Below, piece after piece: positions 3,170 through 55,471 of a stretch of DNA of 64,000 bases (position 1 is its first letter; each line of letters starts with the position of its first letter). Made by a program: the position numbers and the translations under genes. The DNA comes from Candidatus Moraniibacteriota bacterium. Lineage in GTDB: Bacteria > Patescibacteriota > Minisyncoccia > Moranbacterales > UBA1568. The stretch covers positions 9,502 through 73,501 of the forward strand of contig JBAXOD010000003.1 of NCBI GenBank assembly GCA_037133435.1. Direction: 5' to 3'. The notes below the pieces were generated by a model. That model was not told where the DNA came from. It saw only the letters and a list, made by a program, of their open reading frames with translations, and did no database searches.

Positions 3170-3718
3170 TTATTCCGGGATGATGACCATGCTGATGCCG
3201 TTGCGCATTCCCTTGATCTCTTCCTCCACTTTGTAGGGGATGGCGAGGAGATCGAGGAATTCCTTCATGGATTCTTTCGCGCGGTCGCGCATCGCCTTCT
3301 CACGTCCGCGAAGGAGCAGTTCTATCCGTACCTTGTGGCCTTTTGAAAGGAATTTTTCCGCCTGATCCTTCTTGAAGAGGAGATCGTGCCTGTCGACGCG
3401 GAGTCCGATACGGATACCCTTGATGTCGATCTTTTTCTGGTTGCTCTTGGCCTGCTGTTCCTTCTTGGTCTGTTGGTATTGGAATTTCCCGTATTCGAGG
3501 ATCTTGCACACCGGGGGGACCGCCTGTGGTGAGACTTCGATGAGATCGAGTTCGTCCGCCCGTGCGATCTCCAGGGCCTGCGCGACGGACATCTCGCCGA
3601 GCGACTCGCCGTTTAAGCCTATCACGAAAATGACCGGCGCGGTGATTTGCTCGTTGTGCCGGAATTTCTGCTTGATCTGCGGCTTCGGTTTCGGCCTTCT
3701 GCTGCGTCTGCGTCTCAT
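3170..3718 (-). CDS. infC: translation initiation factor IF-3
   Basis: IF3 N- and C-domain motifs are present (VIGLNGESLGEMSVAQALEIARADELDLIEVSPQAVPPVCKILEYGKFQYQ ... IKGIRIGLRVDRHDLLFKKDQAEKFLSKGHKVRIELLLRGRE). It sits upstream of rpmI-rplT. Confidence 0.85.
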   Translation of the reverse strand: MRRRRSRRPKPKPQIKQKFRHNEQITAPVIFVIGLNGESLGEMSVAQALEIARADELDLIEVSPQAVPPVCKILEYGKFQYQQTKKEQQAKSNQKKIDIKGIRIGLRVDRHDLLFKKDQAEKFLSKGHKVRIELLLRGREKAMRDRAKESMKEFLDLLAIPYKVEEEIKGMRNGISMVIIPE

Positions 3719-3815
3719 ATGGTAGCGTCAGAAGCTTCGGAAGCTGCAAGAGCTTCAAGAGCTTAAATATATATTTCGCGTTACCGAAGTTTTTGAGGCT
3801 TCGGTACGCTTCCTG

Positions 3816-4210
3816 TGGAGTTGATGGGAATCGCACCCATGTCCAAACGGGTTTTTCCAGAACCGCCTACAAGCATAGTCAGCCTTTGGTTCCCCGGAAA
3901 GCGGAAAGGCGGACGGAAATCCTTCCGGGACCTCTTTTCATGCCGGGCCGACTGAGTGAATCGAGGTAAGACTCGTGTCGGTCCGCCTGATGGTATGACA
4001 CCGGATGACCCTTATCAGACATCGGGGGTCCGATGGCTCTCGCGAATTAGGCGAGGGCTGAAGCGAAAGACGGGGAGAACGCGTTAGCGAACGCCATCTT
4101 CACCTTTGATACGATGTTGGCAGTTATCGTGTGCGGGGATTTTTTACGATGATTCCCCATCATCGGCTTGCAGGTTCTGAATGAACGCGCTGTCGAAACT
4201 AAACAACCCC
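3816..4210 (-). ncRNA. ssrA: tmRNA (SsrA)
   Basis: The minus-strand 5' end reads GGGGUUGUUUAGUUUCGACAGCG (compare E. coli GGGGCUGAUUCUGGAUUCGACGGG). The 3' end reads AUGGG-UGCGAUU-CCCAU-CAACUCC-A (T-arm, then acceptor 3' strand pairing with the 5' GGGGUUG, then discriminator A; CCA is not encoded). An internal in-frame reading ...AFANAFSPSFASALA-UAA is a candidate tag. It lies immediately next to smpB. Confidence 0.65.
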
Positions 4211-7374: not shown

Positions 7375-7986
7375 ATGGGACAAGCGACAGTCTTTTTTCT
7401 TATACGGCACGGGGAAGCTGAATCGAATACCCGACGCATCTTGGATTCGTTTCCCGGAAATCCCGCTTTCGGTCTGACTGAGAACGGCCGACAGCGGGTA
7501 GCGCTCTCTGCGGCCGCCATGGCAGCTGAGGGAATAGACGTTATTTTTTCGTCTCCGATGAGACGGACACGCGATACGGCGGAAATCATTTCGGAAGCAT
7601 GCGGCGGTATGTCGATACGGTTCGACGAACGACTGCGGGAATCTGATAATGGCATATGGAATGGGAGGTCTCTCGATGAGTTCAGGGAAAGACACCCTGA
7701 TTGGTCATCAAATATAGACGGTGATGTCGAGGAGGGGACCGAAGGTTATCCAGCCATGCGGGAACGAATGGTCGAAGTAGTCCAAAACGCGCTTCGTGAA
7801 TTTGTCGGTTGTCGGATCGCTATCGTTTCGCACGGAGACCCTCTTGTGCAACTTCACGGCGCTCTGCTCGGTGAAACTGTCATGGAGAGTATAAGCGAAG
7901 AGAATTGGTATCCCGAGACGGGATCGGCGACCCGGATCGAGATGGATTCCGATGCCGTGTCACGCCTGTTGTCTGGGAACGGATAG
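7375..7986 (+). CDS. histidine phosphatase family protein (phosphoglycerate mutase-like)
   Basis: RHGE catalytic motif (FLIRHGEAESN) and downstream ...SSPMRRTRDTAE...SHGD pattern. Confidence 0.65.
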   Translation: MGQATVFFLIRHGEAESNTRRILDSFPGNPAFGLTENGRQRVALSAAAMAAEGIDVIFSSPMRRTRDTAEIISEACGGMSIRFDERLRESDNGIWNGRSLDEFRERHPDWSSNIDGDVEEGTEGYPAMRERMVEVVQNALREFVGCRIAIVSHGDPLVQLHGALLGETVMESISEENWYPETGSATRIEMDSDAVSRLLSGNG

Positions 7987-8003
7987 CGCTATACTGGGGA
8001 TAT

Positions 8004-8483
8004 ATGAGGGAAGATCATCGTGAAACCATCGAAGTACATGTGGCAGGTATCTGTCTGCGGGAAACGGAGGCCGGTATATTGGTATTGATCGCGAAACGCC
8101 GCGAGAACCGGACGCTCTATCCCGGTCTCTGGGAATGCGGCGGCGGGCAAGTGCGTGCCGGCGAGAATTTTGATGAGGCGATCGCCCGGCAGATGCAAGA
8201 GGAATTCGGGATCCATATCGGTGAAGCGACCCCGTTCTCGACCTATGAGATCGCCGTACCGGATCTGCCGCAGACGAAGATCCCCGGTCTCGAATTCGTG
8301 TGTTCCTTCAAGGGGTATACGAAGAATCAGTCCGATCCGGTATGCGATATCCGGGAGCATTCCGAATGCCGATGGCAATCGATCGATGATTTATCGGGAT
8401 TTGACTTTATTCCCGGAATACGGGATGATATTCGTGATGGGTGGGAAATATATTCCCGGAATCGGGATATTCTCATGCGGTAG
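8004..8483 (+). CDS. NUDIX hydrolase
   Basis: Nudix box GGGQVRAGENFDEAIARQMQEEFG. The ORF track start (7905, overlapping the upstream gene) is replaced by an internal ATG at about 8004. Confidence 0.65.
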   Translation: MREDHRETIEVHVAGICLRETEAGILVLIAKRRENRTLYPGLWECGGGQVRAGENFDEAIARQMQEEFGIHIGEATPFSTYEIAVPDLPQTKIPGLEFVCSFKGYTKNQSDPVCDIREHSECRWQSIDDLSGFDFIPGIRDDIRDGWEIYSRNRDILMR

Positions 8484-8892
8484 GAGCGTACAATACAACC
8501 GGCGTCAATGGGGCCCAGTCCGCAATGCTATGGCGTTGCAGACGGATATCACCTCTGAGCTGGCCTCATGAGAGGCAGGCGCGCCTCGGAAAGAAACGTT
8601 ATGTATGGCTGATAGTCAGCCTTCGCAAATGCATCTTATGAGGGCGGTCCGCCTTCGCAAATGCTTCGGCATGACGCTGTAGAATCCGACGGGTAGGCCC
8701 GTAATAGCCGCAATGAAGGCAAGTGCTTCCCCATTTGGTTTTTGTGAATTGGGGTTTGTGTTTTGCGAAGTGAAGGTGGTACCACGGTTTTTCCGTCCTT
8801 CCCTGTTTTTCGGGGAGGGATTTTTGTTTATAATGAGAAATGGGGTGAAATGGGTGTAAAGGGGGGAATATCGAGCGGAATACGCATTCATT

Positions 8893-9570
8893 ATGATCAA
8901 GCCGGAACGAAAACCATACGGGTATCGGGATTTACTCGCCTATAAGAAGGCCGAGGAATTACAGTTTTCCTGTATGGAATTGACTCATGTGTTTCCGAGG
9001 ATAAAGACCTTGATCGCATTGGCCGATCAGATGGATCGCTCGGCGAGGTCGGTGAAACAGAATATCGTGGAAGGGTGGAAACGGAATTCGACGAAGGAGT
9101 ATTATGATTTCCTGGGATTTTCGATCGGGGCGAATACGGAATTGGAGGAGGATTGTGACGATATTTGGAAGGGGATGTACCCGGAATTGATGAGGGAAAG
9201 GGGTGTAATGGGATGGGAACAAAAGGACAAGATGGGTGAAAGGGAAGTAACGGGTCAGGATCAAGGAGGGGAAATGGGAGCAAAGAGAGGGTTGGATATC
9301 GAGAAATTGAAATTCTATCCGTTGGATGCGGGGTTGCCGAAAGTGGTACGATTGAAATTGAGATGCAAGGAATTGAATTTCCTACTCGATCGGCTTCAAA
9401 AATCGTTGATTGAAAAGATGAAAGAGGAAGAAACCCTTTCATGGAAAGATAAACGATTCCTTGTCAAAGACGTGAAGCGGAAGGAAGAAGACTACGATGA
9501 AAAGATACTTAGGGAAAACGGATTGAAACGCCTTGAGAACGGCCAAGTAGTGGAAGATACCGAAGTATAG
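8893..9570 (+). CDS. four-helix-bundle protein (23S rRNA IVS protein / Avd-like family) with a repetitive Gly/Glu/Lys-rich C-terminal extension
   Basis: The N-terminal ~110 aa (YRDLLAYKKAEELQFSCMELTHVFPR...LADQMDRSARSVKQNIVEGWKR...EYYDFLGFSIGANTELEE) fit the PF05635-like pattern. Imperfect inverted repeats (GGGTAATGG-like motifs) lie at about 8840-8870 and 9625-9657. Confidence 0.6.
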   Translation: MIKPERKPYGYRDLLAYKKAEELQFSCMELTHVFPRIKTLIALADQMDRSARSVKQNIVEGWKRNSTKEYYDFLGFSIGANTELEEDCDDIWKGMYPELMRERGVMGWEQKDKMGEREVTGQDQGGEMGAKRGLDIEKLKFYPLDAGLPKVVRLKLRCKELNFLLDRLQKSLIEKMKEEETLSWKDKRFLVKDVKRKEEDYDEKILRENGLKRLENGQVVEDTEV

Positions 9571-45554: not shown

Positions 45555-45616
45555 TACCCACACGTTTATGGAAACGAAAAACGGCACGGATACGTGTCGT
45601 TTTTCGTTCTTTATAG

Positions 45617-45700
45617 TACCGCGGGAGAGACTCGAACTCTCATGGTATCGCTACCGCGGGATTTTGAGTCCCGTGTGTCTACCAGTTCCACCACCGCGGC
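45617..45700 (-). tRNA. tRNA-Leu (anticodon CAA), type II with long variable arm
   Basis: Folded by hand on the minus strand: acceptor GCCGCGG/CCGCGGU (G1-U72), 3-bp D-stem GUG/CAC, anticodon stem CGGGA/UCCCG with loop CUCAAAA, variable arm GGUAGCGAUACC, T-arm GAGAG-UUCGAGU-CUCUC, discriminator A. CCA is not encoded. Confidence 0.8.
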
Positions 45701-46869: not shown

Positions 46870-47844
46870 ATGGTACAGCAACACGGACTCGGACGCGGAC
46901 TCTCGTCGCTCATTCCTCCGAAAAAGGAAGATCGGGAAGCATCGTTCAAGGATATGACGATCAAGACCATGGAGGCACAGGGTGTCGATCTTTCGACGAC
47001 GCACGTTCCGAACGATCGGGAACGTATCGCGACTTCCGATCCGGAACCGGCCGCGTCCTCGGTAGGGGCCCCGGGCGTCACGGAAGTCCTTATTTCCGAA
47101 ATCGTTCCGAACCCGCATCAGCCGCGGTTGCATTTCGACGAGGATCGGCTCCGGGAGCTTGCGGAATCCATTCGGGAACACGGTGTCGTCCAGTCGCTGG
47201 TCGTCTCGCCGAGGCAGGATGGAACCTATGAATTGATCGCCGGAGAACGTCGGTTGAAGGCCTCGAAGCTCGCGGGACTTATGAAGGTTCCCGTGGTCAT
47301 CCGGGACGCGGACGAGCGTGAGAAACTGGAACTGGCCATCATCGAGAACGTCCAGCGTCACGATCTCAACCCGATCGAGGAAGCACGGGCGTATGCGAGA
47401 CTGATCGACGAGTTCGGTCTGATCCAAGAAGACGTGGCGAAGAAGATGGGCAAGAGCCGGAGTGCGGTCGCCAACGCGGTCCGATTGCTCGTTTTGCCGA
47501 TCGAGATCCAGCGCGCGGTCGCCGAGGGGAAGATTTCCGAGGGACATGCCAAAGTGCTCCTTTCGGTCGAGAATCCGGAAAAGCAACGTGCGGTCTTCGA
47601 GCTTATCATGAAGACCGGATTGACCGTTCGCGGGACGGAAGCCAAAGTCCGGGAATCGGTGGTGCATACGCATACGCGTCGCGTTTCCCCGGTAGCTCCC
47701 GGGCTCGTCGAGAAAGCTGACCGGATTTCTGCGGCTCTCGGGACCAAGGTCGAAGTGAAGCCGGCCGGCAAGGGCGGCCGGATCGTCGTCGAGTATTATT
47801 CGGACGAGGAACTCGAACAGATCGTCTCGAGAATCCTGCCGTGA
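46870..47844 (+). CDS. parB: chromosome partitioning protein ParB
   Basis: ParB box (ISEIVPNPHQPR), GERRLKASKLAG, HTH region. Confidence 0.85.
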   Translation: MVQQHGLGRGLSSLIPPKKEDREASFKDMTIKTMEAQGVDLSTTHVPNDRERIATSDPEPAASSVGAPGVTEVLISEIVPNPHQPRLHFDEDRLRELAESIREHGVVQSLVVSPRQDGTYELIAGERRLKASKLAGLMKVPVVIRDADEREKLELAIIENVQRHDLNPIEEARAYARLIDEFGLIQEDVAKKMGKSRSAVANAVRLLVLPIEIQRAVAEGKISEGHAKVLLSVENPEKQRAVFELIMKTGLTVRGTEAKVRESVVHTHTRRVSPVAPGLVEKADRISAALGTKVEVKPAGKGGRIVVEYYSDEELEQIVSRILP

Positions 47845-47858
47845 ATCCCTTTTCTTAG

Positions 47859-48167
47859 TATCTCTCTCAAATCTCATGTCGAACTGAAATACGGAAATTT
47901 CGATAGGAGCGCCAACCAGAGGTTGGTCACCCTCTGGGTGAAAAACCCTGAAAATCGAGGACGGGTATCCGAAGGAGATGGGGATCCCGCTGTCGTAACC
48001 TGACGATTTTTGAATGATTTGTCCGCCCGCGACGATCGCTTGGCGAGACGGTCGGGGTCCGCCCGCAACGCTTCGCGTAGCGATTCGGGCGGGCAGCCGA
48101 AATTTTCGGATTTCAGCCGGCAAGCGGATTTTTTGCCTTATAGAGGCGTTGAGATTTGAGAGAGATA
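47859..48167. repeat. 309-bp segment bounded by perfect 17-bp inverted repeats (TATCTCTCTCAAATCTC / GAGATTTGAGAGAGATA)
   Basis: Read directly. The interior contains hairpins ccagaggttgg/caccctctgggtg and a family-B hairpin (about 48059-48093). The right arm overlaps the TTG start of the next ORF. Confidence 0.4.
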
Positions 48168-48533
48168 CTTACTTGCATTGAAAACGATATGAAATTGATC
48201 ACAAATGACGAAACAATCAGTCGATCCGAATTGAAAGATATGGCCGGGAAGATGTTTGGCGGACTGGTAAAGGGCGTTGTGGATGTCTCGCGCGGGATCA
48301 TGGCCGTGGATGCCGAACTGCATGCCGACGAGGAAGCGTTCCTTCTGAAATCCGGCTCGTCGCAAGACGATCTCTGGGGTATCAACCTTTATCCGGACGA
48401 GACGGGTGAGGATTTCATCGAATTCGATTCCATGATAAACGTCCGACCCCGACAGGGAAATAAGAGTCGTGGCGTCGAGAATGCCGATCTTCGGAGTGCA
48501 ATAATCGGAATCGTAAACGATCTAGTCGTATGA
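48156..48533 (+). CDS. hypothetical protein (TTG start)
   Basis: 125-aa ORF. Its stop overlaps the next gene's start by 4 bp. Confidence 0.4.
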   Translation: MREILTCIENDMKLITNDETISRSELKDMAGKMFGGLVKGVVDVSRGIMAVDAELHADEEAFLLKSGSSQDDLWGINLYPDETGEDFIEFDSMINVRPRQGNKSRGVENADLRSAIIGIVNDLVV

Positions 48534-48865
48534 GCGATATCTTCCATGAGGGTTTGGCGAACGGCGGATGGGAAGTACTCCCGCTCGTTTCGCAGATGGC
48601 CAATATCGGCAGTGAAGTCGGTCGTGCATTCTCGTGGCGGGGAAAAAATCGTGAGGAACGGGCGAACGACGCGGCGTGCCGGGCTTTGGAACTGTTTGAT
48701 TTTTCCCTTTCCGATGCGAAAAACCGTGAACGCCTACGCGAGATCGCACGAGCGCGCGAAGTGTTCGTCGATTCTTTTTTTGGTGACAATGAATACGGCT
48801 CCACCCCTGAATTGTGGCAATCATATTTCTTAGCCTTCGCGACGGCTGCCCGACAAGGGAAGTAA
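48530..48865 (+). CDS. hypothetical protein (possibly MazG-like all-alpha NTP pyrophosphohydrolase)
   Basis: 111-aa acidic helical protein. Weak resemblance to the MazG family only; not diagnostic. Confidence 0.3.
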   Translation: MSDIFHEGLANGGWEVLPLVSQMANIGSEVGRAFSWRGKNREERANDAACRALELFDFSLSDAKNRERLREIARAREVFVDSFFGDNEYGSTPELWQSYFLAFATAARQGK

Positions 48866-48903
48866 TACCGAAATAACTTGATGTGTTGTATATCGCCACC
48901 AGG

Positions 48904-48958
48904 GGAGTTCGCCCAGCCCTTCGCGAAGAGCGGGGCGAACTCCGGCTGAGTCTTTTTT
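48904..48958 (+). terminator. hairpin (ggagttcgccc...gggcgaactcc) followed by a T-run
   Basis: 11-bp perfect stem with a cttcgcgaag inner palindrome; tttttt 9 nt downstream. Confidence 0.4.
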
Positions 48959-48992
48959 CCATGCTATACTGAAGACAAACATCATCCGGAAT

Positions 48993-51671
48993 ATGTCTGA
49001 AAAGGATTTTTTCGCTATCGGAGAGGAACGACGGAAGCTTCGTCACGAGGTGCTTGATGCGACCGGGTTTTCGGCACACGAAGTGTCTTCGCGTGGCGGA
49101 GTGGTCGCGAAACCGGAATTCATGAAGGAGGTCAATGAAGGCAACCTTTCAAATGTCGCGGAGAAGGTCGTGCTCGATGCGGACTCGGCGCCTTCGGTAT
49201 CCGAGGGACTTGACCGTATCGAGGCGTTGAACGAGAAAGCAAAGGAGTTCAAACTTTTTCCGGACCGACCGGAGAAAACCGAAGCGGTGTCGCCTGAACA
49301 AACGGAGCGGTCACTTTCCGATGTCCGCCGACGATATGCAAAAGCGCGCGAGGCCAAGGCGCTTGATGGTGGAGGAGAGAAGCCGACGAGGATGGATACA
49401 GAAGAGACGCTCATCGAGCCAAACGAAAAGGAACAGCGAAAGGCAAACCTTTTCCAGGAACTTTATTCGATGGAACGATTTTCCACACTCCAGAAGCAGG
49501 GTCGGTATCGTTTGTTGCGCCGACCGGAAGATGAGCGACTTGCCGAACGGCTTCGTATAGGCGCGGACCTCACGCGGACCGTCATAAAACGGCGCGAAAC
49601 ACTTGAGGCGGATGTGGATACGAGATACGTGGTCCGTGAATATGAGCTGTCGAAATATCGGCAACAGCTGACAAACGAACGCTTCGTGGTCACGCCGAGT
49701 CGGCGTGGCTATATCGATCGGATCGGATCACTCATCGAACAAGGAAAGCCGATTCTTGAGGAAGGGCATACCGGTGGTGGCAAGACCGAGCTCGCGAAGT
49801 ATGCCGCGCGCGAATGTACCGGTCGTGAAGCTGAGGTCGTGTATTGCAACCCACAGACCCGCCAGAGCGATATTTTCGGCAGGCAATCACTTCGTGAAAG
49901 TGACCGCGGGGCAACCGTGACGGATATCGATTTCGGTCCGCTCACGAGGGCTCTTACCGAAGGGAAAATCTGTATTTTCGATGAATTTAACGAGCTTGAC
50001 CCGAGATTCCGGCAGGTGCTCAAAGCCCTCTACAACGCGAAACCTGGGGACATGGTGAACGTGCCGGGCAATGGCAAAGTTCTCGTCGCACAAGGGTTCG
50101 GTTGCATCATGACCGCGAACCTCAAGAGTGAGAAATATGCCGAGAAGGGTGCGCTTGAACCGCAAGAAACACGAGTGTTTCTTGATTCGACCATTCGGAC
50201 GGACTATCCGCCTGCTTCGGAATTGTACGATGTCGCACTGTCCTCACTTGCCGATACGCAGGGGAACGTGCTTCTGACGCGCGAAGAGGCGGACACGACC
50301 CTGAAGCATTTCACCGATGCCATCCACGATATACAGGAGGCATATGCGAACACACTCCCGGCACACTATGGAAATGACACCGATTTTTCGGCGTTCGGGA
50401 AGGGGTCGAAACGGGGGAAACGACCGCAACTCGAGAAATACGTGCTCGATACCGGTATGGCGGTGCGACTCTTACAGGGATTTCGAATCGCACGGATGGA
50501 ACACGGGACATCGCTTGTCGATTTCCTCGACGAAGCACTCATCCGGACCTTCGAGGGGGACAAGATCGGTGAAGAGGACAAGCGCCTCGCGATCTATATG
50601 TTGGCCCAAAAAGGATTCCTCTCAGGATACAAGCAAGAGGACTTTCGGACACGCATCGGGGTCGATTACTCCGACAAGAAGCTCGATCCGACGACATTAT
50701 CAAAATCGAAACGAGCCGAGCTTTCTCCGGACGAAAGCTTTGCGACCCTGTCCGCCGAAGAGGTGGCGAGAATCGATCCGTATGAACGGATGAGAATCGA
50801 CGCGAATGAGGAGCTCGGATTGCCGTCCACGTCACCGGATAAGCCGGGCTCTCCTGAATACCACAGTTTCAGGGAGGCACGGGATATCTTCAAGGAGCGT
50901 TTCTATGGGCCAGAGGAAACAGAGCAGGTCTTCGGGTTCCGACCGGAAGCACCACCGATCCCGTATACAAAAGCAGACATGCTCCGGCACGAACAGCTCG
51001 GTCATATCCTGATGTACAATCCGGATATATTGCCAGACGGGACGCCGTTCGATATTCAGACCATGGCCAGTCGTGCGCTTTCCGGCGGACGCAATGTCTT
51101 GGAACGCGATGCGAGCGGAATTCCGACGAAGTATCTCCTCTACAAGGAGCAGTTTGACGAAAATGGTAAGATCTTGGACGGTGCTTGGTTTTCTGGCGAT
51201 CAAGAAGTGAAAACCGGCACCCCACAGTCTGGGTGGCAGTTTGTCTCGCCCGAGGCCTTGCCTGATACGGAAAACAAAAACTTCGTCGCGCAGACGGATA
51301 TCCTGATCGAGAATGCGAGAGAAAATTTCTTTGGCGGAGGAGTACCGGATGCATTTCAAAAAGCCGTCGATGAATGGCATTCAAAGAAGGTTATGTTCAA
51401 AGATGATGCCAACAAGCTTGCGTCGCTTCCAATCATGAACTTTGTGCGTGAACGAGTACAAAATACGATATTTCGGTTTCTCCTCGTACATGGAACAGGA
51501 AGAGGGACGCTGTTCGCGGACGGCAATTATGTCTGGTCATATGCACTCTCGTCGGGCGGCAGCCTCGTTTCCTTCGGCTTTGCGGTCGCGGTTGGCGCGG
51601 ACGTGTACGGGTACGCGCCGGTTGACTCGTACTCGGATTTGCGTGCCGTGGCCTCCCGCAGTGGATGTTGA
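48993..51671 (+). CDS. DGR target protein: MoxR-like AAA+ ATPase (AAA_5-type) with a C-terminal hypervariable (VR-encoded) domain
   Basis: Walker A LEEGHTGGGKTELAKYA, Walker B ICIFDEFNELD, sensor GFGCIMTANLK. The last ~40 codons are the VR of the DGR; they differ from the downstream TR only at adenine positions. Confidence 0.8.
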   Translation: MSEKDFFAIGEERRKLRHEVLDATGFSAHEVSSRGGVVAKPEFMKEVNEGNLSNVAEKVVLDADSAPSVSEGLDRIEALNEKAKEFKLFPDRPEKTEAVSPEQTERSLSDVRRRYAKAREAKALDGGGEKPTRMDTEETLIEPNEKEQRKANLFQELYSMERFSTLQKQGRYRLLRRPEDERLAERLRIGADLTRTVIKRRETLEADVDTRYVVREYELSKYRQQLTNERFVVTPSRRGYIDRIGSLIEQGKPILEEGHTGGGKTELAKYAARECTGREAEVVYCNPQTRQSDIFGRQSLRESDRGATVTDIDFGPLTRALTEGKICIFDEFNELDPRFRQVLKALYNAKPGDMVNVPGNGKVLVAQGFGCIMTANLKSEKYAEKGALEPQETRVFLDSTIRTDYPPASELYDVALSSLADTQGNVLLTREEADTTLKHFTDAIHDIQEAYANTLPAHYGNDTDFSAFGKGSKRGKRPQLEKYVLDTGMAVRLLQGFRIARMEHGTSLVDFLDEALIRTFEGDKIGEEDKRLAIYMLAQKGFLSGYKQEDFRTRIGVDYSDKKLDPTTLSKSKRAELSPDESFATLSAEEVARIDPYERMRIDANEELGLPSTSPDKPGSPEYHSFREARDIFKERFYGPEETEQVFGFRPEAPPIPYTKADMLRHEQLGHILMYNPDILPDGTPFDIQTMASRALSGGRNVLERDASGIPTKYLLYKEQFDENGKILDGAWFSGDQEVKTGTPQSGWQFVSPEALPDTENKNFVAQTDILIENARENFFGGGVPDAFQKAVDEWHSKKVMFKDDANKLASLPIMNFVRERVQNTIFRFLLVHGTGRGTLFADGNYVWSYALSSGGSLVSFGFAVAVGADVYGYAPVDSYSDLRAVASRSGC
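51543..51658 (+). repeat. DGR variable repeat (VR) at the 3' end of the target gene
   Basis: 116-bp gapless alignment with the TR at about 51925-52040. About 15 mismatches, every one at a TR adenine. The 3' end ...gatttgcgtgccgtggcctcccg is identical (IMH-like). Encodes ...ALSSGGSLVSFGFAVAVGADVYGYAPVDSYSDLRAVASR. Confidence 0.8.
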
Positions 51672-51924
51672 GCTTTGATCTTTGAACCTTTGAGTCGGCT
51701 TCCGCCCCGGAAAGGGGTGGAAGCGGTTTTGAATATGATATACTGATTGTGGGAATGAGACACGGCGTACGCGTCGTGACCCCAGCAGTTTCTGCTTGTC
51801 CGGTGTCGGCGCGAGTATCGACAGAGAGGGGAGTAGGAGCGCGCGCATATTTTCTCCCCACGTCCGGTGCCGGTACGAGACCGTATCCGCTTCGGAACGC
51901 ATTCGGATGGCACCGGGCACCATG

Positions 51925-52040
51925 GCACTCTCGTCGGACGGCAACCTCGTTTACTTCGGCAATGCGGACGCGAATGGCGCGAACGTGAACGGGAACACGC
52001 CGGATGACTCGAACTCGAATTTGCGTGCCGTGGCCTCCCG
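51925..52040 (+). repeat. DGR template repeat (TR)
   Basis: gcactctcgtcggacggcaacctcgtttacttcggcaatgcggacgcgaatggcgcgaacgtgaacgggaacacgccggatgactcgaactcgaatttgcgtgccgtggcctcccg. Rich in AAC/AAT codons (8 Asn in frame). Non-coding position between the target gene and avd. Confidence 0.8.
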
Positions 52041-52052
52041 AAGGAACGGCGA

Positions 52053-52442
52053 TCACCGCGGACGACCCGCGGTTTTCGTTTCCTCCGATTCGGTCGTCTT
52101 TTTGAGCCAGCCACCGATCATCTTGCCGATCTCGACGCCGTATCCGGATAATTCGGCGTACCCGGCATCGTTGAGACATCGGGTATCGTGCGCGAGCCGG
52201 AGATGAAAGAAAAATATCCGCAGTGTCACGTCCATCTTGTTGAGGATCATGGCCCTCGATGTGCCACGTTTCGATTGAGCCAGGTAGCCGAGCTCGACAA
52301 TCTCGAGGAGGGACTGTTCGAGACGCATACCGAGCGAGTAGCGTGACGCTTTCGGAAATGAAAGAATACGGGTATGGAGACACCGATAACAGTCGGCAAG
52401 CCGAAGGAAAATGACCGGTTCCGAGAAGTTGCTGTCGTTCAT
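52053..52442 (-). CDS. avd: DGR accessory variability determinant (Avd), four-helix-bundle family
   Basis: 129-aa minus-strand ORF: ...FPKASRYSLGMRLEQSLLEIVELGYLAQSK...LNKMDVTLRIFFFHLRLAHDTRCLNDAGYAELSGYGVEIGKMIGGWLKK. This aligns well with the bAvd/PF05635 pattern (...LRLA...EIGKMLGGW...). Divergent from the RT. Confidence 0.7.
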   Translation of the reverse strand: MNDSNFSEPVIFLRLADCYRCLHTRILSFPKASRYSLGMRLEQSLLEIVELGYLAQSKRGTSRAMILNKMDVTLRIFFFHLRLAHDTRCLNDAGYAELSGYGVEIGKMIGGWLKKTTESEETKTAGRPR

Positions 52443-52448
52443 GATGAT

Positions 52449-53474
52449 ATGTTCGAACGGATTATCTCACTTGAGAACCTGGTTGGCGCGTGGCGTGAAT
52501 TCCGAATCGGGAAACGTTCCAAAAAAGACGTCATCGAGTTCGGTGATCGGGTCGAAGAATATCTCGTGGCGCTCGCTCTCGACCTGAAAGCCGGGAAGTA
52601 TCGTCACGGACAGTATACCCGATTCATCGTCCACGATCCAAAACGGAGGGAAATATCCAAGGCGCCGGTCCGTGACCGGGTGCTCCACCATGCCCTTTGC
52701 CGAGTGATCGTTCCCGTGTTCGATCGCGGATTCATTTTCGATTCGTATGCGAATCGGACCGGGAAAGGGACACTTTCCGCGAATGACCGGCTCGATGCCT
52801 TCGTCCGGAAATGCTCGCGAAACGGCTCGCGCACGGCGTTCGTATTGAAGGCTGATATCCGGAAATACTTCGATTCGGTCGATCACGAAACGTTGCTTCG
52901 GATTTTGGGTCGACGGATCCGATGTGAACGAACGCTCGGATTGCTTCACTTTGTCGTTTCGAGCTTTGAAACGTCTCCCGGTAAAGGTATTCCACTCGGA
53001 AACTTGACGTCGCAACTGTTCTCCAACGCGTATCTCGATCCATTTGACCAGTTCGTAAAGCGAGAGCTCGGTGTGAAATACTATATCCGGTATGCCGATG
53101 ATTTCGTGGTCCTTTCGGACGATGTGGGAGCGCTTGACCGCATGCGGTCACGTATGGATGCGTTCCTGACCCTGAATCTCGGCCTCACGCTACATCCCGA
53201 GAAGACACGGATTGTTCGATTCGGGAGCGGGGTGGATTTTCTCGGGAAGGTGCATTTCCGATTTCACCGGGTCCTTCGCGTGAAAACGAAGAGACGAAGT
53301 ATCCGGAGAATCGCATCTCGGAATGAGTCATCGTATATCGGACTCCTGAGACATTCGCGGTCGCATGGATTGGTACGGATACTCCGTGATATACTGGAAC
53401 AAAGGAATATTTTGGAAGAAGTATGCGTGAACCCGTCTACAAAGCCGAGCGGAGCGTGGACCAGTCGGGTATGA
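52449..53474 (+). CDS. DGR reverse transcriptase
   Basis: RT motifs including YADDFVV. The DGR-diagnostic LGNLTSQ (I/LGxxxSQ in motif 4, replacing the group II intron QG). N-terminus MFERIISLENLVGAW resembles the Bordetella bRT start. The ORF track offers 52374 as an upstream start, but that would overlap avd. Confidence 0.85.
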   Translation: MFERIISLENLVGAWREFRIGKRSKKDVIEFGDRVEEYLVALALDLKAGKYRHGQYTRFIVHDPKRREISKAPVRDRVLHHALCRVIVPVFDRGFIFDSYANRTGKGTLSANDRLDAFVRKCSRNGSRTAFVLKADIRKYFDSVDHETLLRILGRRIRCERTLGLLHFVVSSFETSPGKGIPLGNLTSQLFSNAYLDPFDQFVKRELGVKYYIRYADDFVVLSDDVGALDRMRSRMDAFLTLNLGLTLHPEKTRIVRFGSGVDFLGKVHFRFHRVLRVKTKRRSIRRIASRNESSYIGLLRHSRSHGLVRILRDILEQRNILEEVCVNPSTKPSGAWTSRV

Positions 53475-55471
53475 CACGTCCCGATTCGGGCGACAACGGC
53501 GACCCGGTGGCCGATTTTATCGAACGAAACAAACGTGCGCTTACGCAGTATGCCGGCGATGCGTCGCTTTCCGTGCGTTCTGCCGAGGGGGTGATGACAC
53601 CAGACGGCCCGCTTGAGACATGCGCGATCGATCTTGAGAAGGGAGAATATTATTTGCATCGACGGTTCCGGGACGGGGCATACGGTGGATCCGAGGAGAA
53701 GATGCTCTTCGGGGCGTTTCATGAGATAGAACACTTCCGCGAGCTTCGGGGTCTTTTGCGGGAGCACACCGGGTCGGACGTCTGGCGGAAATTGCGAAAG
53801 AAAAAAGAAGAACGGACGCGGTATCATATATTGGATAATTCTTTTGGTGATGTGAAGATGAATAATGCGGTCGTGAATCGCGCGCCCGTATTGTCCGGGA
53901 CGCGGGAAGAACTGTATCGGAGCGACCTATTTCCCGAGCGGGACTTGACGGGCCTTCCGAAACATTTGCAGTTCGTGCACGTGCTGAATTGCGAGATGCA
54001 GATCCCGGGCGAGACCTGGACGGTCGATCCGGACGTCCGTGAGGAATTCGAGAAACTGAAAACGATACGCGGTCAGAAATCCGGACGCCCGATACTCGAG
54101 TATGCGACCCATCCGGATATCTCGATGCGTGATCGACTGATCGTGCAAGACGCGCTCATCGAACCGGTGTACGAAAAATTCTTCGTAGAGGACGTTCGGA
54201 AGAAACAAGAACAGCAATCGAACAAACCTTCGGAATCGGGGCAAAAAAATGGTGAACCGGACCAAAGCGGGGATGCATCGAAACCGGGAAGCAGTGATGG
54301 AAAGCCGGATACGAATCAGGAGCCTCCATCGGAATCGTCTTCGAAGCCAGGGAATGAAATGCCTGGGCAGAGCGAAGGGGCTTCGGGTAAGTCGACCGAT
54401 GAAAACAGGACTGACCCCGAGAATCCCGAGGCATATTTCCGTAAGGAATATGATGACTATTTTAAACAGCATCCGGAGGCGATACCAAAAGACGTGTTGA
54501 AGCGTGTTGTGGAAGAGGAAATCACACGACAAAACGAAAGCATGCGAGATCCTGGAAAAAACGCGTTCGATGCGTATGCCCGGGCGCAGGGCGTCGAGCC
54601 GAACGATCTTCGGAACTATATGCGTTTCCGTGACTCGCTCGAAAAAATAACCGATTCGGAAACAGGCGAATCGGTTGTAGATGCGATACGAGAACTGTTC
54701 GAGCGGATTATTTCGAAACGTTTGAAGTGGATGCCAGAGCCGAAATACCCACTTCCGGAAGGGGACGAGCTTGAATATCCTGCAGAAGCAGTTGTCAGGA
54801 CACGCGCTGGCGAGACAGAACCAGACGTATGGAGTGAGACGGAATTTCGTGAAAAAGAGGGGGATTTCACGGGTGACTTCGATGTGACTCTTGTTGGTGA
54901 TACCTCGATTTCGATGGCGGAAAATGGCGGGAAAAAACGGGACGAACAGAAGAAAGGCATCATATTGATCATGGAGGCACTTTCTGAATTCTCGGAGCGA
55001 TTAGAAGAGGTGCGCTCGCGGCTCCGACATGATCTGCACGTCCGTTCGGAAGGATGGGTATTCGGGAATTCGGCGGAATGTGTCAAACCGCTGTCCGAGG
55101 ATTTGTCGGAGAAAGACCGGGTCGCGATGTACAAGCGACTTGGGAACACGAGCGGATCGACGAAGGACTTTCTCGTACTCAAAAAGTTGTCTGATGCCCT
55201 GACCGAAGATGAAGTGAATCGCATACGTAATGGAAGTCTTAAAAAAATTGTTATCGTCATGACCGATGGAGATAGTGATAACGTAGCGCTTGTACAAGAA
55301 GAGCTCAAAAAACTTCGTGATAATGGCGTCATCGTTATCGGCGTAGGGATAACTGAAGAAGGGAAATCGGCACTGACGACCTATGCGCCGGAGGCGAGGC
55401 TTTGTGAAAAAGCGACGGATGTAGCCATGGTTCTCGGTGAACTGCTCAAGGAACATCTCCGGAGCCTTTAA
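53471..55471 (+). CDS. vWA domain protein (MIDAS motif) with N-terminal HExxH-containing region
   Basis: C-terminal vWA domain: DVTLVGDTSISM ... IVIVMTDGDSDN (DxSxS...T...D MIDAS). N-terminal FHEIEHF. Central low-complexity acidic/Ser-Gly-rich linker. The start ATG overlaps the RT stop (ATGA). The ORF track start 53423 is in the same frame. Confidence 0.7.
   Translation: MTRPDSGDNGDPVADFIERNKRALTQYAGDASLSVRSAEGVMTPDGPLETCAIDLEKGEYYLHRRFRDGAYGGSEEKMLFGAFHEIEHFRELRGLLREHTGSDVWRKLRKKKEERTRYHILDNSFGDVKMNNAVVNRAPVLSGTREELYRSDLFPERDLTGLPKHLQFVHVLNCEMQIPGETWTVDPDVREEFEKLKTIRGQKSGRPILEYATHPDISMRDRLIVQDALIEPVYEKFFVEDVRKKQEQQSNKPSESGQKNGEPDQSGDASKPGSSDGKPDTNQEPPSESSSKPGNEMPGQSEGASGKSTDENRTDPENPEAYFRKEYDDYFKQHPEAIPKDVLKRVVEEEITRQNESMRDPGKNAFDAYARAQGVEPNDLRNYMRFRDSLEKITDSETGESVVDAIRELFERIISKRLKWMPEPKYPLPEGDELEYPAEAVVRTRAGETEPDVWSETEFREKEGDFTGDFDVTLVGDTSISMAENGGKKRDEQKKGIILIMEALSEFSERLEEVRSRLRHDLHVRSEGWVFGNSAECVKPLSEDLSEKDRVAMYKRLGNTSGSTKDFLVLKKLSDALTEDEVNRIRNGSLKKIVIVMTDGDSDNVALVQEELKKLRDNGVIVIGVGITEEGKSALTTYAPEARLCEKATDVAMVLGELLKEHLRSL

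Follow-up and report, generated by a model that had tools for sequence, protein, structure and literature searches.

A probably complete chromosomal DGR of the Patescibacteria type in a metagenome-assembled Candidatus Moraniibacteriota genome

A gapless pair of repeats, whose two copies differ only where one of them carries an adenine, was noticed in a window of 64,000 nucleotides (the whole stretch of DNA analysed here) from a metagenome-assembled genome of Candidatus Moraniibacteriota. The locus raises the question of whether these repeats are the VR and the TR of a DGR and, if so, whether the element is complete and has been active. We consider it highly probable (about 0.93) that the locus is a complete chromosomal DGR of the Patescibacteria (CPR) type, with the order target, TR, avd on the opposite strand, and RT. 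The two repeats are as follows.

51543-51661, + strand: VR; diversified positions 51545-51637; C51659 is a fixed VR-specific base
51925-52043, + strand: TR; 25 adenines; 14 variable codons, eight of them AAY; conserved CCGAAG at the end

Base-by-base alignment of this direct repeat (offset 382, gapless, 119 nt, 87% identity) showed that all 16 mismatches between VR and TR are located at TR adenines (A to T, 8; A to G, 6; A to C, 2), with no indel and no mismatch at any other base over the 119 nt. The hypergeometric probability of finding 16 of 16 mismatches on adenines, with 25 A per 119-nt TR, is 7.6e-14. The original prediction, which read the pair as belonging to a DGR, had described 116 bp without gaps and about 15 substitutions confined to TR adenines; we counted 15 of 15 on adenines in that span (P = 1.8e-13), while the 16th lies just beyond it (C at 51659, A at 52041). 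Its two peptides and its count of eight AAC/AAT codons were correct. The identical 3' stretch, given as 23 nt, is really 22 nt long (51637-51658), and the g with which 'gatttgcg...' starts belongs to the mismatches (G/A, 51636/52018). Neither the indels or non-adenine mismatches nor the better-matching TR elsewhere that were named as counterevidence turned up. A scan of both strands of the whole window, in which any change at a TR adenine and up to 25 other mismatches were allowed, recovered only VR and TR itself, so that the window holds no second or better template or target.

The adenines of TR are placed at codon position 1 or 2 in 22 of 23 cases, and about 1e13 protein variants can be derived from TR, none of them with a stop codon. 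A 119-nt direct repeat with its copies 382 nt apart could also have arisen if the 3' end of the gene was simply duplicated in tandem and then changed by normal mutation or by A-specific damage or editing, with an unrelated RT nearby by coincidence. This explanation is effectively refuted by the restriction of 16/16 mismatches to the adenines of one copy only (P about 8e-14), by the concentration of those adenines in codon positions 1 and 2 as AAY, by the adjacency of Avd and of a DGR-clade RT, and by the recurrence of the arrangement with independent sequences in more than 15 loci. We then considered the genes around the repeats.

48993-51671, + strand: ORF of the DGR target gene; encodes a MoxR-like AAA+ ATPase of 892 aa that ends in a variable C-type lectin domain
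52053-52442, - strand: avd (accessory variability determinant), 129 aa; TR and RT are on the other strand
52449-53474, + strand: DGR reverse transcriptase, 341 aa; ATG at 52449, although the ORF could start at 52374
53423-55471, + strand: conserved partner gene for a 682-aa zincin-like/VWA protein; its first 52 nt are shared with the end of the RT gene

The RT belongs to the Pfam family RVT_1, and its homologues align from residues 1-2 of the 52449 start. It carries the motif L183GNLTSQ, which corresponds to the DGR RT signature [I/V/L]GxxxSQ (PMC7826257), the YxDD motif Y215ADD, and an arginine, R67, that aligns to R74 of bRT. Its best solved relative is bRT of the Bordetella phage (8ub7_A, E 3.8e-48), compared to 2e-20 for the group II intron RTs; a DGR-type RT is thus adjacent to the repeats. 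Avd was recognised by Pfam bAvd (50.6 bits, cutoff 40) and, under the curated cutoff of 80, by NCBIfam DivGenRetAVD (58 bits, E 8.6e-16), and a sequence search of Avd against the PDB gave no match. The RT and avd genes are arranged head to head, with 6 nt separating their start codons. Neither gene yielded a promoter motif, and the minus-strand placement of avd is kept in the relatives. The order TR 51925-52043 (+), avd 52442-52053 (-) and RT 52449-53474 (+) is that of the B3 architecture, TR-(avd)-RT, which accounts for 90% of CPR DGRs (Wu et al. 2018, PMC5758913).

The target protein is 100% identical to an NCBI 'AAA family ATPase' from a Candidatus Moraniibacteriota MAG. Pfam AAA_5 was found at residues 258-379 (E 5e-13), together with a Walker A motif at 258 (GHTGGGKT) and a Walker B motif at 326 (ICIFDE), and no Pfam family was found, even at E<=10, for the lectin domain or for the N-terminal and middle parts of the ATPase. 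Structure prediction, which was used where Pfam gave no family, yielded a confident model of the C-terminal 250 residues as a C-type lectin (CLec) fold that carries VR, and the modelled domain matches Mtd, TvpA and TaqVP. VR is therefore located at the 3' end of the target gene, inside a fold that tolerates variation. The passage of PMC10907252 that quotes Paul et al. 2017 gives an AAA ATPase with CLec as the commonest CPR target.

The partner protein starts with a zincin-like domain (HEIEH at 100-104), which an acidic linker joins to a VWA domain at the C terminus (MIDAS DTSIS at 493); for the N-terminal part of the protein no Pfam family was found, even at E<=10. The ATPase target and VWA genes are syntenic, in either order, in all loci with enough flanking sequence. 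Neither of the two proteins contains a transmembrane segment or a signal peptide.

The nature of the target bears on whether the DGR could be borne by a phage or prophage and diversify a receptor-binding protein, as in Bordetella phage BPP-1. Many DGRs are indeed phage-borne, and the 5.2-kb block holding the cassette was recently exchanged between related genomes. Such an origin is nevertheless very improbable for an AAA+ ATPase devoid of tail-fibre features and transmembrane segments, with housekeeping neighbours both in the window (ParB, tRNA-Leu, glycosyltransferase and GalT) and in the relatives (ribosomal protein, EF-G/EF-Tu, SecY and GroEL genes), the more so as CPR DGRs, in clade 2, are described as cell-encoded (PMC8144416). 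A chromosomal DGR remains our reading of the locus, and its noncoding elements are listed below.

48962-48970, + strand: extended -10-like promoter motif TGCTATACT; the target ATG lies 23 nt downstream
51698-51724, + strand: GC-rich hairpin, candidate DGR target-recognition hairpin/cruciform, 36 nt after VR; 11-bp stem, 5-nt loop GGAAA
51736-51744, + strand: extended -10-like motif TGATATACT, likely the promoter of the TR RNA
51751-51920, + strand: structured leader of the TR RNA, conserved in 12 lineages (aligned with MAFFT, folded with RNAalifold)
51751-51758, + strand: leader element GGGAATGA
51759-51767/51772-51780, + strand: leader hairpin P1
51792-51796, + strand: leader element CTGCT
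51796-51807/51909-51920, + strand: leader long-range helix P2
51836-51848, + strand: leader element GGAGCGCGCGCAT
52042-52084, + strand: stem-loop directly 3' of TR; core at 52055-52073, then TTTTCGTTT
53387-53395, + strand: -10-like motif TGATATACT, within the 3' end of the RT gene; the VWA start codon follows after 28 nt

The 3' end of VR contains an IMH-like block that is GC-rich and free of adenines (51638-51658), and VR and TR are identical over 21-22 nt there. Immediately after this block, VR has a C and TR has an A, and the sequences then diverge. Since C is found in VR and A in TR in every related lineage examined, C51659/A52041 is a fixed difference between the repeats rather than a product of mutagenesis, and it marks the IMH/IMH* boundary that had been proposed from the first inspection. 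IMH is thus distinct from IMH* at the sequence level.

A GC-rich hairpin downstream of VR, which had been suggested as a further check, is present at 51698-51724 and recurs in 13 related lineages. The stem there has 8-11 bp and is always closed by a C-G pair, and the loop reads G[G/T]NNA, while the stem sequences are completely different between these 13 lineages. The pair counts for this hairpin are partly circular, as each sequence was picked as a hairpin; its independent support is the recurrence, the loop motif and a shuffle control, in which stems of at least 10 bp were obtained in about 1% of shuffles. A plain terminator was rejected as the sole role of this hairpin, which is not followed by a T tract in most lineages and whose loop and closing pair are conserved. 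Comparison with the hairpins of the BPP-1 type showed a longer stem here (11 bp instead of 7-10 bp), a 5-nt G[G/T]NNA loop instead of a 4-nt GRNA loop, and, in this locus and its relatives, a distance from VR of 35-77 nt instead of 4-34 bp; the BPP-1 hairpin loses its function when 2 nt are added to the loop (PMC3240598).

The motif TGNTATACT occurs five times in the window versus 0.39 expected, and three of these five occurrences closely precede, respectively, the target gene, the TR leader and the VWA gene. The related loci have a TATACT, TATAAT or TATGAT box after the post-VR hairpin. These motifs suggest how the transcription units may be laid out. Support for the structure of the leader came from the alignment: 83.7% of the cells were paired, versus about 48% with the partners slid, and the covariation score of 0.756, versus about 0.2, was reached by 0 of 500 shuffles. 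No Rfam match was found for the leader or around TR at E<=1, nor at 47800-49000, and only tmRNA and tRNA were detected at the gathering threshold. A search with a covariance model of the leader (R1) recovered no more than the subclade from which the model had been built and missed the CPR DGRs with other VR classes (L014, L017, L026, L028, L030, L032 and L034), so that the leader is either clade-specific or too divergent to be detected elsewhere.

For the region 3' of TR, the MAFFT alignment was structurally uninformative and we relied on per-lineage folding, which revealed a strong hairpin (-15 to -23 kcal/mol) 3-27 nt after TR in 11 of 15 lineages. The stem-loop found here, which is followed by a T tract, is a candidate for an Avd-binding stem-loop and/or for a terminator between the convergent TR RNA and avd. 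If it terminates transcription, the priming of cDNA synthesis may differ from that of BPP-1, because the RNA left 3' of TR would then fall far short of the roughly 140 nt required in BPP-1. [quoted passage not shown] The P2 duplex beside the 5' end of TR has both of its segments upstream of TR, whereas in the duplex of BPP-1 an upstream segment is paired with a downstream one (10.1101/2023.10.23.563531). The RNA scaffold of this DGR subclade may thus consist of a domain of about 170 nt 5' of TR and of a short stem-loop only on the 3' side, and the helix that closes the leader, which abuts TR, may act as a cDNA stop. Priming and termination of the cDNA would then be unlike those of the prototype.

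More than 15 related loci, spread over several CPR lineages, show the same gene order, and every one of them has a separate TR/VR pair with an A bias. Target proteins of the same cluster differed at 0-3 positions before the last 45 residues and at 9-13 positions within them, and in one cluster 11 of 11 differences were within these 45 residues. Comparison of the window with the locus L008 showed 21 differences over the 119 positions of VR and 52 over about 5070 positions of the flanks, a block that is about 99% identical; 19 of the 21 VR differences are at TR-adenine sites and one more is located where the TR of L008 itself has an A. The window and L008 thus have VRs that are distinct at 21 positions next to RT and Avd proteins with 100% identity, which indicates that diversification took place after the very recent common ancestor of the block.

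This turnover of VR between near-identical genomes bears on whether the DGR is a fossil, with its parts intact and a VR that is no longer diversified. Decay does occur in the family, since L001 and L016 kept the target and VWA genes with only fragments of RT and no TR/VR pair. A fossil is however unlikely here: none of RT, Avd and TR is truncated, the catalytic motifs are intact, 119 nt hold no non-A mismatch, and an identical RT and Avd accompany VRs that have already diverged from those of L008. The suggestion that the element is active or was recently so is borne out by near-identical relatives that vary almost only at the TR-adenine positions of VR; these comparisons of proteins and loci support recent activity of the DGR and point to ongoing mutagenic retrohoming, and we infer, from sequence, activity in this very population as well as the ends of the TR RNA.

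Judging by motifs, a separate TGATATACT promoter at 51736-51744 would drive a noncoding RNA in which TR (119 nt) is preceded by the structured leader, about 170 nt long, and followed by the 3' stem-loop. By analogy with the DGR of Bordetella phage BPP-1, the RT, with Avd, would copy TR into a cDNA with random bases opposite the template adenines, and this cDNA would replace VR at the 3' end of the target gene, with the left limit set by homology and the right limit by the A-free GC-rich block (51638-51658), aided by the 11-bp hairpin downstream. Fourteen codons, with about 1e13 variants and never a stop, would be recoded on the predicted ligand-binding face of the C-type lectin, a domain fused to a presumably cytoplasmic MoxR-like AAA+ ATPase, which probably partners with the zincin-like/VWA protein encoded just after RT.

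Comparison with the CPR-type DGRs (PMC5758913, PMC8144416, PMC10907252) showed the same host group (Patescibacteria), the same gene order with a reverse-strand avd between TR and RT and the same cell-encoded target, a P-loop/AAA (Midasin-like) ATPase with a C-terminal VR and without a membrane domain. The likeness to RT clade 2 (Roux et al. 2021, PMC8144416) is by host group, Candidatus Moraniibacteriota, rather than by RT phylogeny. Nothing essential differs from these DGRs. What is added is fold evidence, from a model, that the VR class is a C-type lectin, where Wu et al. left the fold open for the UVR4 class (PMC5758913), together with the conserved zincin-like/VWA partner and the RNA and DNA elements around TR and VR.

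With the experimental prototype, the BPP-1 DGR (mtd-avd-TR-brt), the locus shares adenine-specific transfer from TR to VR, as judged here from the repeats, Avd, the [I/V/L]GxxxSQ motif and the R74 equivalent of the RT, a VR at the C-terminal end of a C-type lectin fold, an A-free GC-rich block at the 3' end of VR, a GC-rich hairpin after VR and a stem-loop just 3' of TR. It differs in that avd is on the opposite strand and 3' of TR, and in that the target is a cytoplasmic ATPase instead of a tail fibre.

Kaur et al. 2020 (PMC7159879) and Dore et al. 2024 (PMC10907252) described DGR-linked MoxR-vWA 'ternary' conflict systems in multicellular bacteria, among them cyanobacteria and gammaproteobacteria, and these systems likewise encode together a MoxR-like AAA+ ATPase and a vWA protein (here the AAA_5 target and the VWA protein), with a DGR-diversified C-type lectin/FGS domain and a peptidase-type domain in the module. 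However, the variable lectin is carried here by the MoxR ATPase and in those systems by the vWA protein, and the peptidase-like domain, in those systems a trypsin or caspase on VMAP, is replaced here by a zincin that forms part of the VWA protein. Synteny across the loci revealed no third (VMAP) gene conserved next to the ATPase/VWA pair besides the DGR core, and PADLOC gave no match for the VWA protein and only a marginal one for the target (mad8, E 0.006); a divergent VMAP may have escaped these comparisons. The host is also an ultra-small CPR bacterium, unlike those of the ternary systems, and Kaur et al. left CPR out of their multicellularity statistics (PMC7159879).

As a DGR, the locus is of the standard kind for Patescibacteria, with a layout and a target type catalogued since 2017, and it adds little; its value lies in being a clean and apparently active case for which numerous relatives, near and far, are at hand. 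These relatives allowed the CLec fold to be shown for this class of targets and revealed that the ATPase target always travels with the zincin-like/VWA partner. The conserved hairpin with its 5-nt loop, the TR leader and the post-TR stem-loop could guide the reconstitution of CPR DGRs or their use as diversification tools. The target and its partner, both without a transmembrane segment or signal peptide, bear on the question of Roux et al. 2021 of whether the targets of CPR DGRs are truly non-membrane proteins. Our more tentative proposal, which we hold to be doubtful, is that the DGR core of Patescibacteria is built into a conserved two-protein machine, a cytoplasmic MoxR ATPase whose hypervariable lectin would be the 'sensor', with a zincin-like/VWA partner, combined, maybe, with an RNA scaffold unlike that of BPP-1. 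The function of the pair is a matter of speculation, and may be ligand sensing coupled to ATP-driven remodelling or proteolysis. If true, such a machine would give ultra-small epibiotic bacteria an intracellular, antibody-like recognition coupled to that activity.

The single long direct repeat of the region was recovered by a repeat finder as two copies of 119 nt, 51543-51661 and 51925-52043 (offset 382, 87% identical). A base-by-base comparison showed 16 mismatches and no gaps, and the downstream copy, the template repeat (TR), carries an adenine at all 16 positions (A>T at 8, A>G at 6 and A>C at 2). With 25 adenines among the 119 nt of the TR, the chance that all 16 mismatches would fall on A is 7.6e-14, which bears out the original prediction that the copies differ at TR adenines only. 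The peptides read from the two copies and the count of eight AAC/AAT codons in the TR were also correct; the identical 3' block is 22 nt long (51637-51658) rather than 23 nt as first given, since the 23-mer as quoted opens with a g that is one of the G/A mismatches. The variable repeat (VR) lies in frame at the extreme 3' end of the 892-codon ORF 48993-51671, the target gene. The 14 variable codons of the TR allow about 1e13 possible proteins and never a stop codon, and of the 23 adenines of its coding part 22 occupy the first or second codon position. When both strands of the whole window were scanned with free substitution at TR adenines, no further copy of the TR or VR turned up, and no second, better-matching TR. 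The observation as a whole and its interpretation as a diversity-generating retroelement (DGR) were correct.

The sixteenth mismatch, C51659/A52041, recurs throughout the VR class of the window: in each lineage the TR ends in ...CCG-A-AG and the VR reads ...CCG-C-... Since this C/A difference is fixed across these lineages, it is not a product of mutagenesis; by analogy with IMH/IMH* in the Bordetella phage prototype BPP-1, it would mark the right-hand limit of information transfer, in keeping with the IMH/IMH* boundary first proposed. The other components of the element were located as follows.

Target residues 258-379: AAA_5 (MoxR/dynein-type) domain (Pfam)
51698-51724: GC-rich hairpin of 11 bp with the loop GGAAA, 36 nt past the VR
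51736-51744: promoter-like motif TGATATACT, after the post-VR hairpin
51759-51767/51772-51780: P1 hairpin of the TR leader, predicted by RNAalifold
51796-51807/51909-51920: P2, a 12-bp long-range helix of the leader predicted by RNAalifold, ending 4 nt before the TR
52055-52073 (core), 52042-52084 (extended): stem-loop directly 3' of the TR, followed by TTTTCGTTT
52442-52053, minus strand: avd, a 129-aa ORF with a bAvd domain (Pfam)
Next ORF on the plus strand after avd: RT, with an RVT_1 domain (Pfam)
53423-55471: ORF after RT, with a VWA domain (Pfam)

The nearest solved relative of the RT was by far bRT, the RT of BPP-1 (8ub7_A, E 3.8e-48), whereas group II intron RTs were matched at 2e-20 or worse. 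In the alignment to bRT, L183GNLTSQ matches the DGR signature [I/V/L]GxxxSQ, Y215ADD is the catalytic motif, and R67 corresponds to bRT R74, one of two residues shown to promote adenine mutagenesis (PMC7826257). The avd product was also matched by NCBIfam with an E of 8.6e-16, below the NCBIfam curated cutoff. The alignments of relatives to the RT begin at the ATG at 52449, which places avd and RT head to head with 6 nt between their start codons. The first 52 nt of the VWA gene (53423-53474) overlap the end of the RT gene. The Walker A and Walker B motifs of the target are intact, and hydrophobic segments and signal-like N-termini are absent from both the target and the VWA protein. In the target homologue P0014 the ATPase part is retained, with 49% identity across 68% of the query, and a shorter, unrelated C-terminus replaces the lectin domain.

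The GC-rich hairpin which the original prediction proposed to look for downstream of the VR is thus present, and was found at the same place in 13 lineages, with a stem of 8-11 bp that always closes with a C-G pair and a 5-nt loop G[G/T]NNA. The stems of the 13 lineages are unrelated in sequence, and stems of at least 10 bp arose in about 1% of shuffles per lineage. A plain terminator is disfavoured, as the T tract is missing in most lineages; the hairpins fit instead the DGR target hairpin/cruciform of Guo et al. 2011 (7-10 bp, 4-nt GRNA loop, 4-34 bp from the VR; PMC3240598), although the 5-nt loop of the window is one base longer.

The sequence TGNTATACT occurs five times in the window against 0.39 expected, and three of these copies shortly precede the target ATG, the TR leader and the VWA ATG, respectively. 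We read the motif at 51736-51744 as the putative promoter of a separate TR RNA. The VWA gene's own TGATATACT motif (53387-53395) is inside the RT coding sequence, and none of this type was found for RT or avd, which lie on opposite strands. The leader between the 51736-51744 motif and the TR is conserved: in a structure-blind MAFFT alignment 83.7% of cells were paired, against about 48% when the partners were slid, 18 of the 21 pairs showed compensatory changes, and the covariation score was reached by no shuffle. The leader had no Rfam match.

Strong hairpins were found 3-27 nt past the TR in 11 of 15 lineages; that of the window separates the TR RNA from avd, which converge on it, extends into the final codons of avd and might also act as a transcription terminator. 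The BPP-1 RNA has an Avd-binding stem-loop just 3' of the TR and, by the TR 5' end, a 'cPRT Stop' duplex of upstream and downstream segments, and such elements are predicted in 207 of 278 DGRs, CPR (Candidate Phyla Radiation) ones included (Handa et al., bioRxiv 10.1101/2023.10.23.563531). By analogy, the post-TR stem-loop is a candidate Avd-binding stem-loop; P2 has the right position for the 'cPRT Stop' duplex, but both of its strands are upstream of the TR.

We compared 45 loci, taken from the contigs of homologues and two collection scans, by tblastn with the four window proteins. The order target-(avd)-RT-VWA was found in at least 15 loci and the order VWA-target-TR in several others. Relatives belong to Moran-, Lloyd-, Ryan-, Yanofsky- and Kaiserbacteria, Paceibacterota and bins labelled Saccharibacteria. 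Wherever a locus had sufficient sequence past the target, an adenine-tolerant diagonal search detected a TR/VR pair, typically with 10-23 adenine mismatches and 0-2 others. A related CPR locus, L017, has one TR (3820-3943) and two VRs (3344-3467 and 1623-1744, one with 5 adenine mismatches and the other with 10), belonging either to two targets or to two lectin domains. In the scheme of Wu et al., TR-(avd)-RT is architecture B3, which makes up 90% of CPR DGRs, and their VR class UVR4 is linked to Midasin/AAA ATPases (PMC5758913). Roux et al. 2021 described a cell-encoded RT clade restricted to Patescibacteria, with targets without membrane domains (PMC8144416). An AAA ATPase joined to a C-type lectin is given as the most frequent CPR target by Dore et al. 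2024, after Paul et al. (PMC10907252). The DGR of the window is therefore the standard CPR DGR.

A Candidatus Moraniibacteriota metagenome-assembled genome encodes an 'AAA family ATPase' with 100% identity to the target. Proteins grouped at 90% identity with relatives of the target show 9-13 differences in their last 45 residues and 0-3 elsewhere; in one cluster, three proteins showed 11 positions differing from the representative, all in the last 45 residues. Comparison with L008, from another Moraniibacteriota metagenome-assembled genome, showed 98-100% identity from ~48960 to ~54150, against ~60-85% in the flanks. The VR differs from that of L008 at 21 of 119 nt and the rest of the block at 52 in ~5070 nt. 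Nineteen of the 21 VR differences are opposite window-TR adenines, one is where L008's own TR has A instead of G, and the last is a true non-A change. Despite the VR differences, the two genomes have 100% identical RT and Avd, and diversification has therefore occurred since a very recent common ancestor of the block. All three comparisons agree with the initial view of an active or recently active element, and point to a DGR that is complete and evidently was recently active. The ~5.2-kb block 48960-54150, compared with L008 and L021 and partly with L009 and L022, runs from the target through TR, avd and RT into the first ~700 nt of the VWA gene, and L009 has a similar, shorter mosaic (about 50560-54350). 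The pattern suggests that the DGR module was recently recombined or transferred between related species.

The surroundings include three genes that are ordinary chromosomal context.

3813-4210, minus strand: tmRNA gene, tag peptide ANIVSKVKMAFANAFSPSFASALA
45616-45700, minus strand: tRNA-Leu(CAA)
46870-47844: ParB gene

A MITE-like element of ~310 bp (47858-48170), with perfect 20-bp terminal inverted repeats (agtatctctctcaaatctca / tgagatttgagagagatact) and no Rfam match, has ends 88-97% identical to L008 and 81-95% to L009, where it is at another location in the opposite orientation. Two small overlapping genes, 48189-48533 (114 aa) and 48530-48865 (111 aa), are just upstream of the target; homologues of the 114-aa protein in L001 and L044 are annotated DUF5674. 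This pair is between the target and VWA genes in L001, upstream of the target in L044 and missing from most other loci. A palindrome (48904-48943, 20-nt arms GGAGTTCGCCCAGCCCTTCG/CGAAGAGCGGGGCGAACTCC, T run from 10 nt downstream) immediately precedes the target promoter motif and probably serves as terminator for the gene pair.

MoxR ATPases are often partnered with VWA proteins. Two loci, L001 (whose module is placed between the EF-G and EF-Tu genes) and L016, have decayed DGRs, in which tblastn found RT reduced to fragments (8808-9059 and 7916-8086, respectively) and no TR/VR pair was detectable, while the ATPase-lectin and VWA genes are intact; the protein pair seems to outlast the loss of diversification. 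DGR-linked MoxR-vWA systems are known from cyanobacteria and other multicellular bacteria (PMC7159879, PMC10907252), but in those it is the vWA protein that carries the lectin, as a fusion, and VMAP is a third component. Neither holds in the window, and the locus is therefore not classed with these ternary systems. Its mode of action may be similar, with the variable lectin as sensor, the ATPase as transducer and the peptidase/VWA as effector. The locus holds a complete DGR of the type most common in CPR. Useful refinements, which may be new details but leave this category unchanged, are the conserved partner gene, the hairpin with a 5-nt loop and the structured TR leader.
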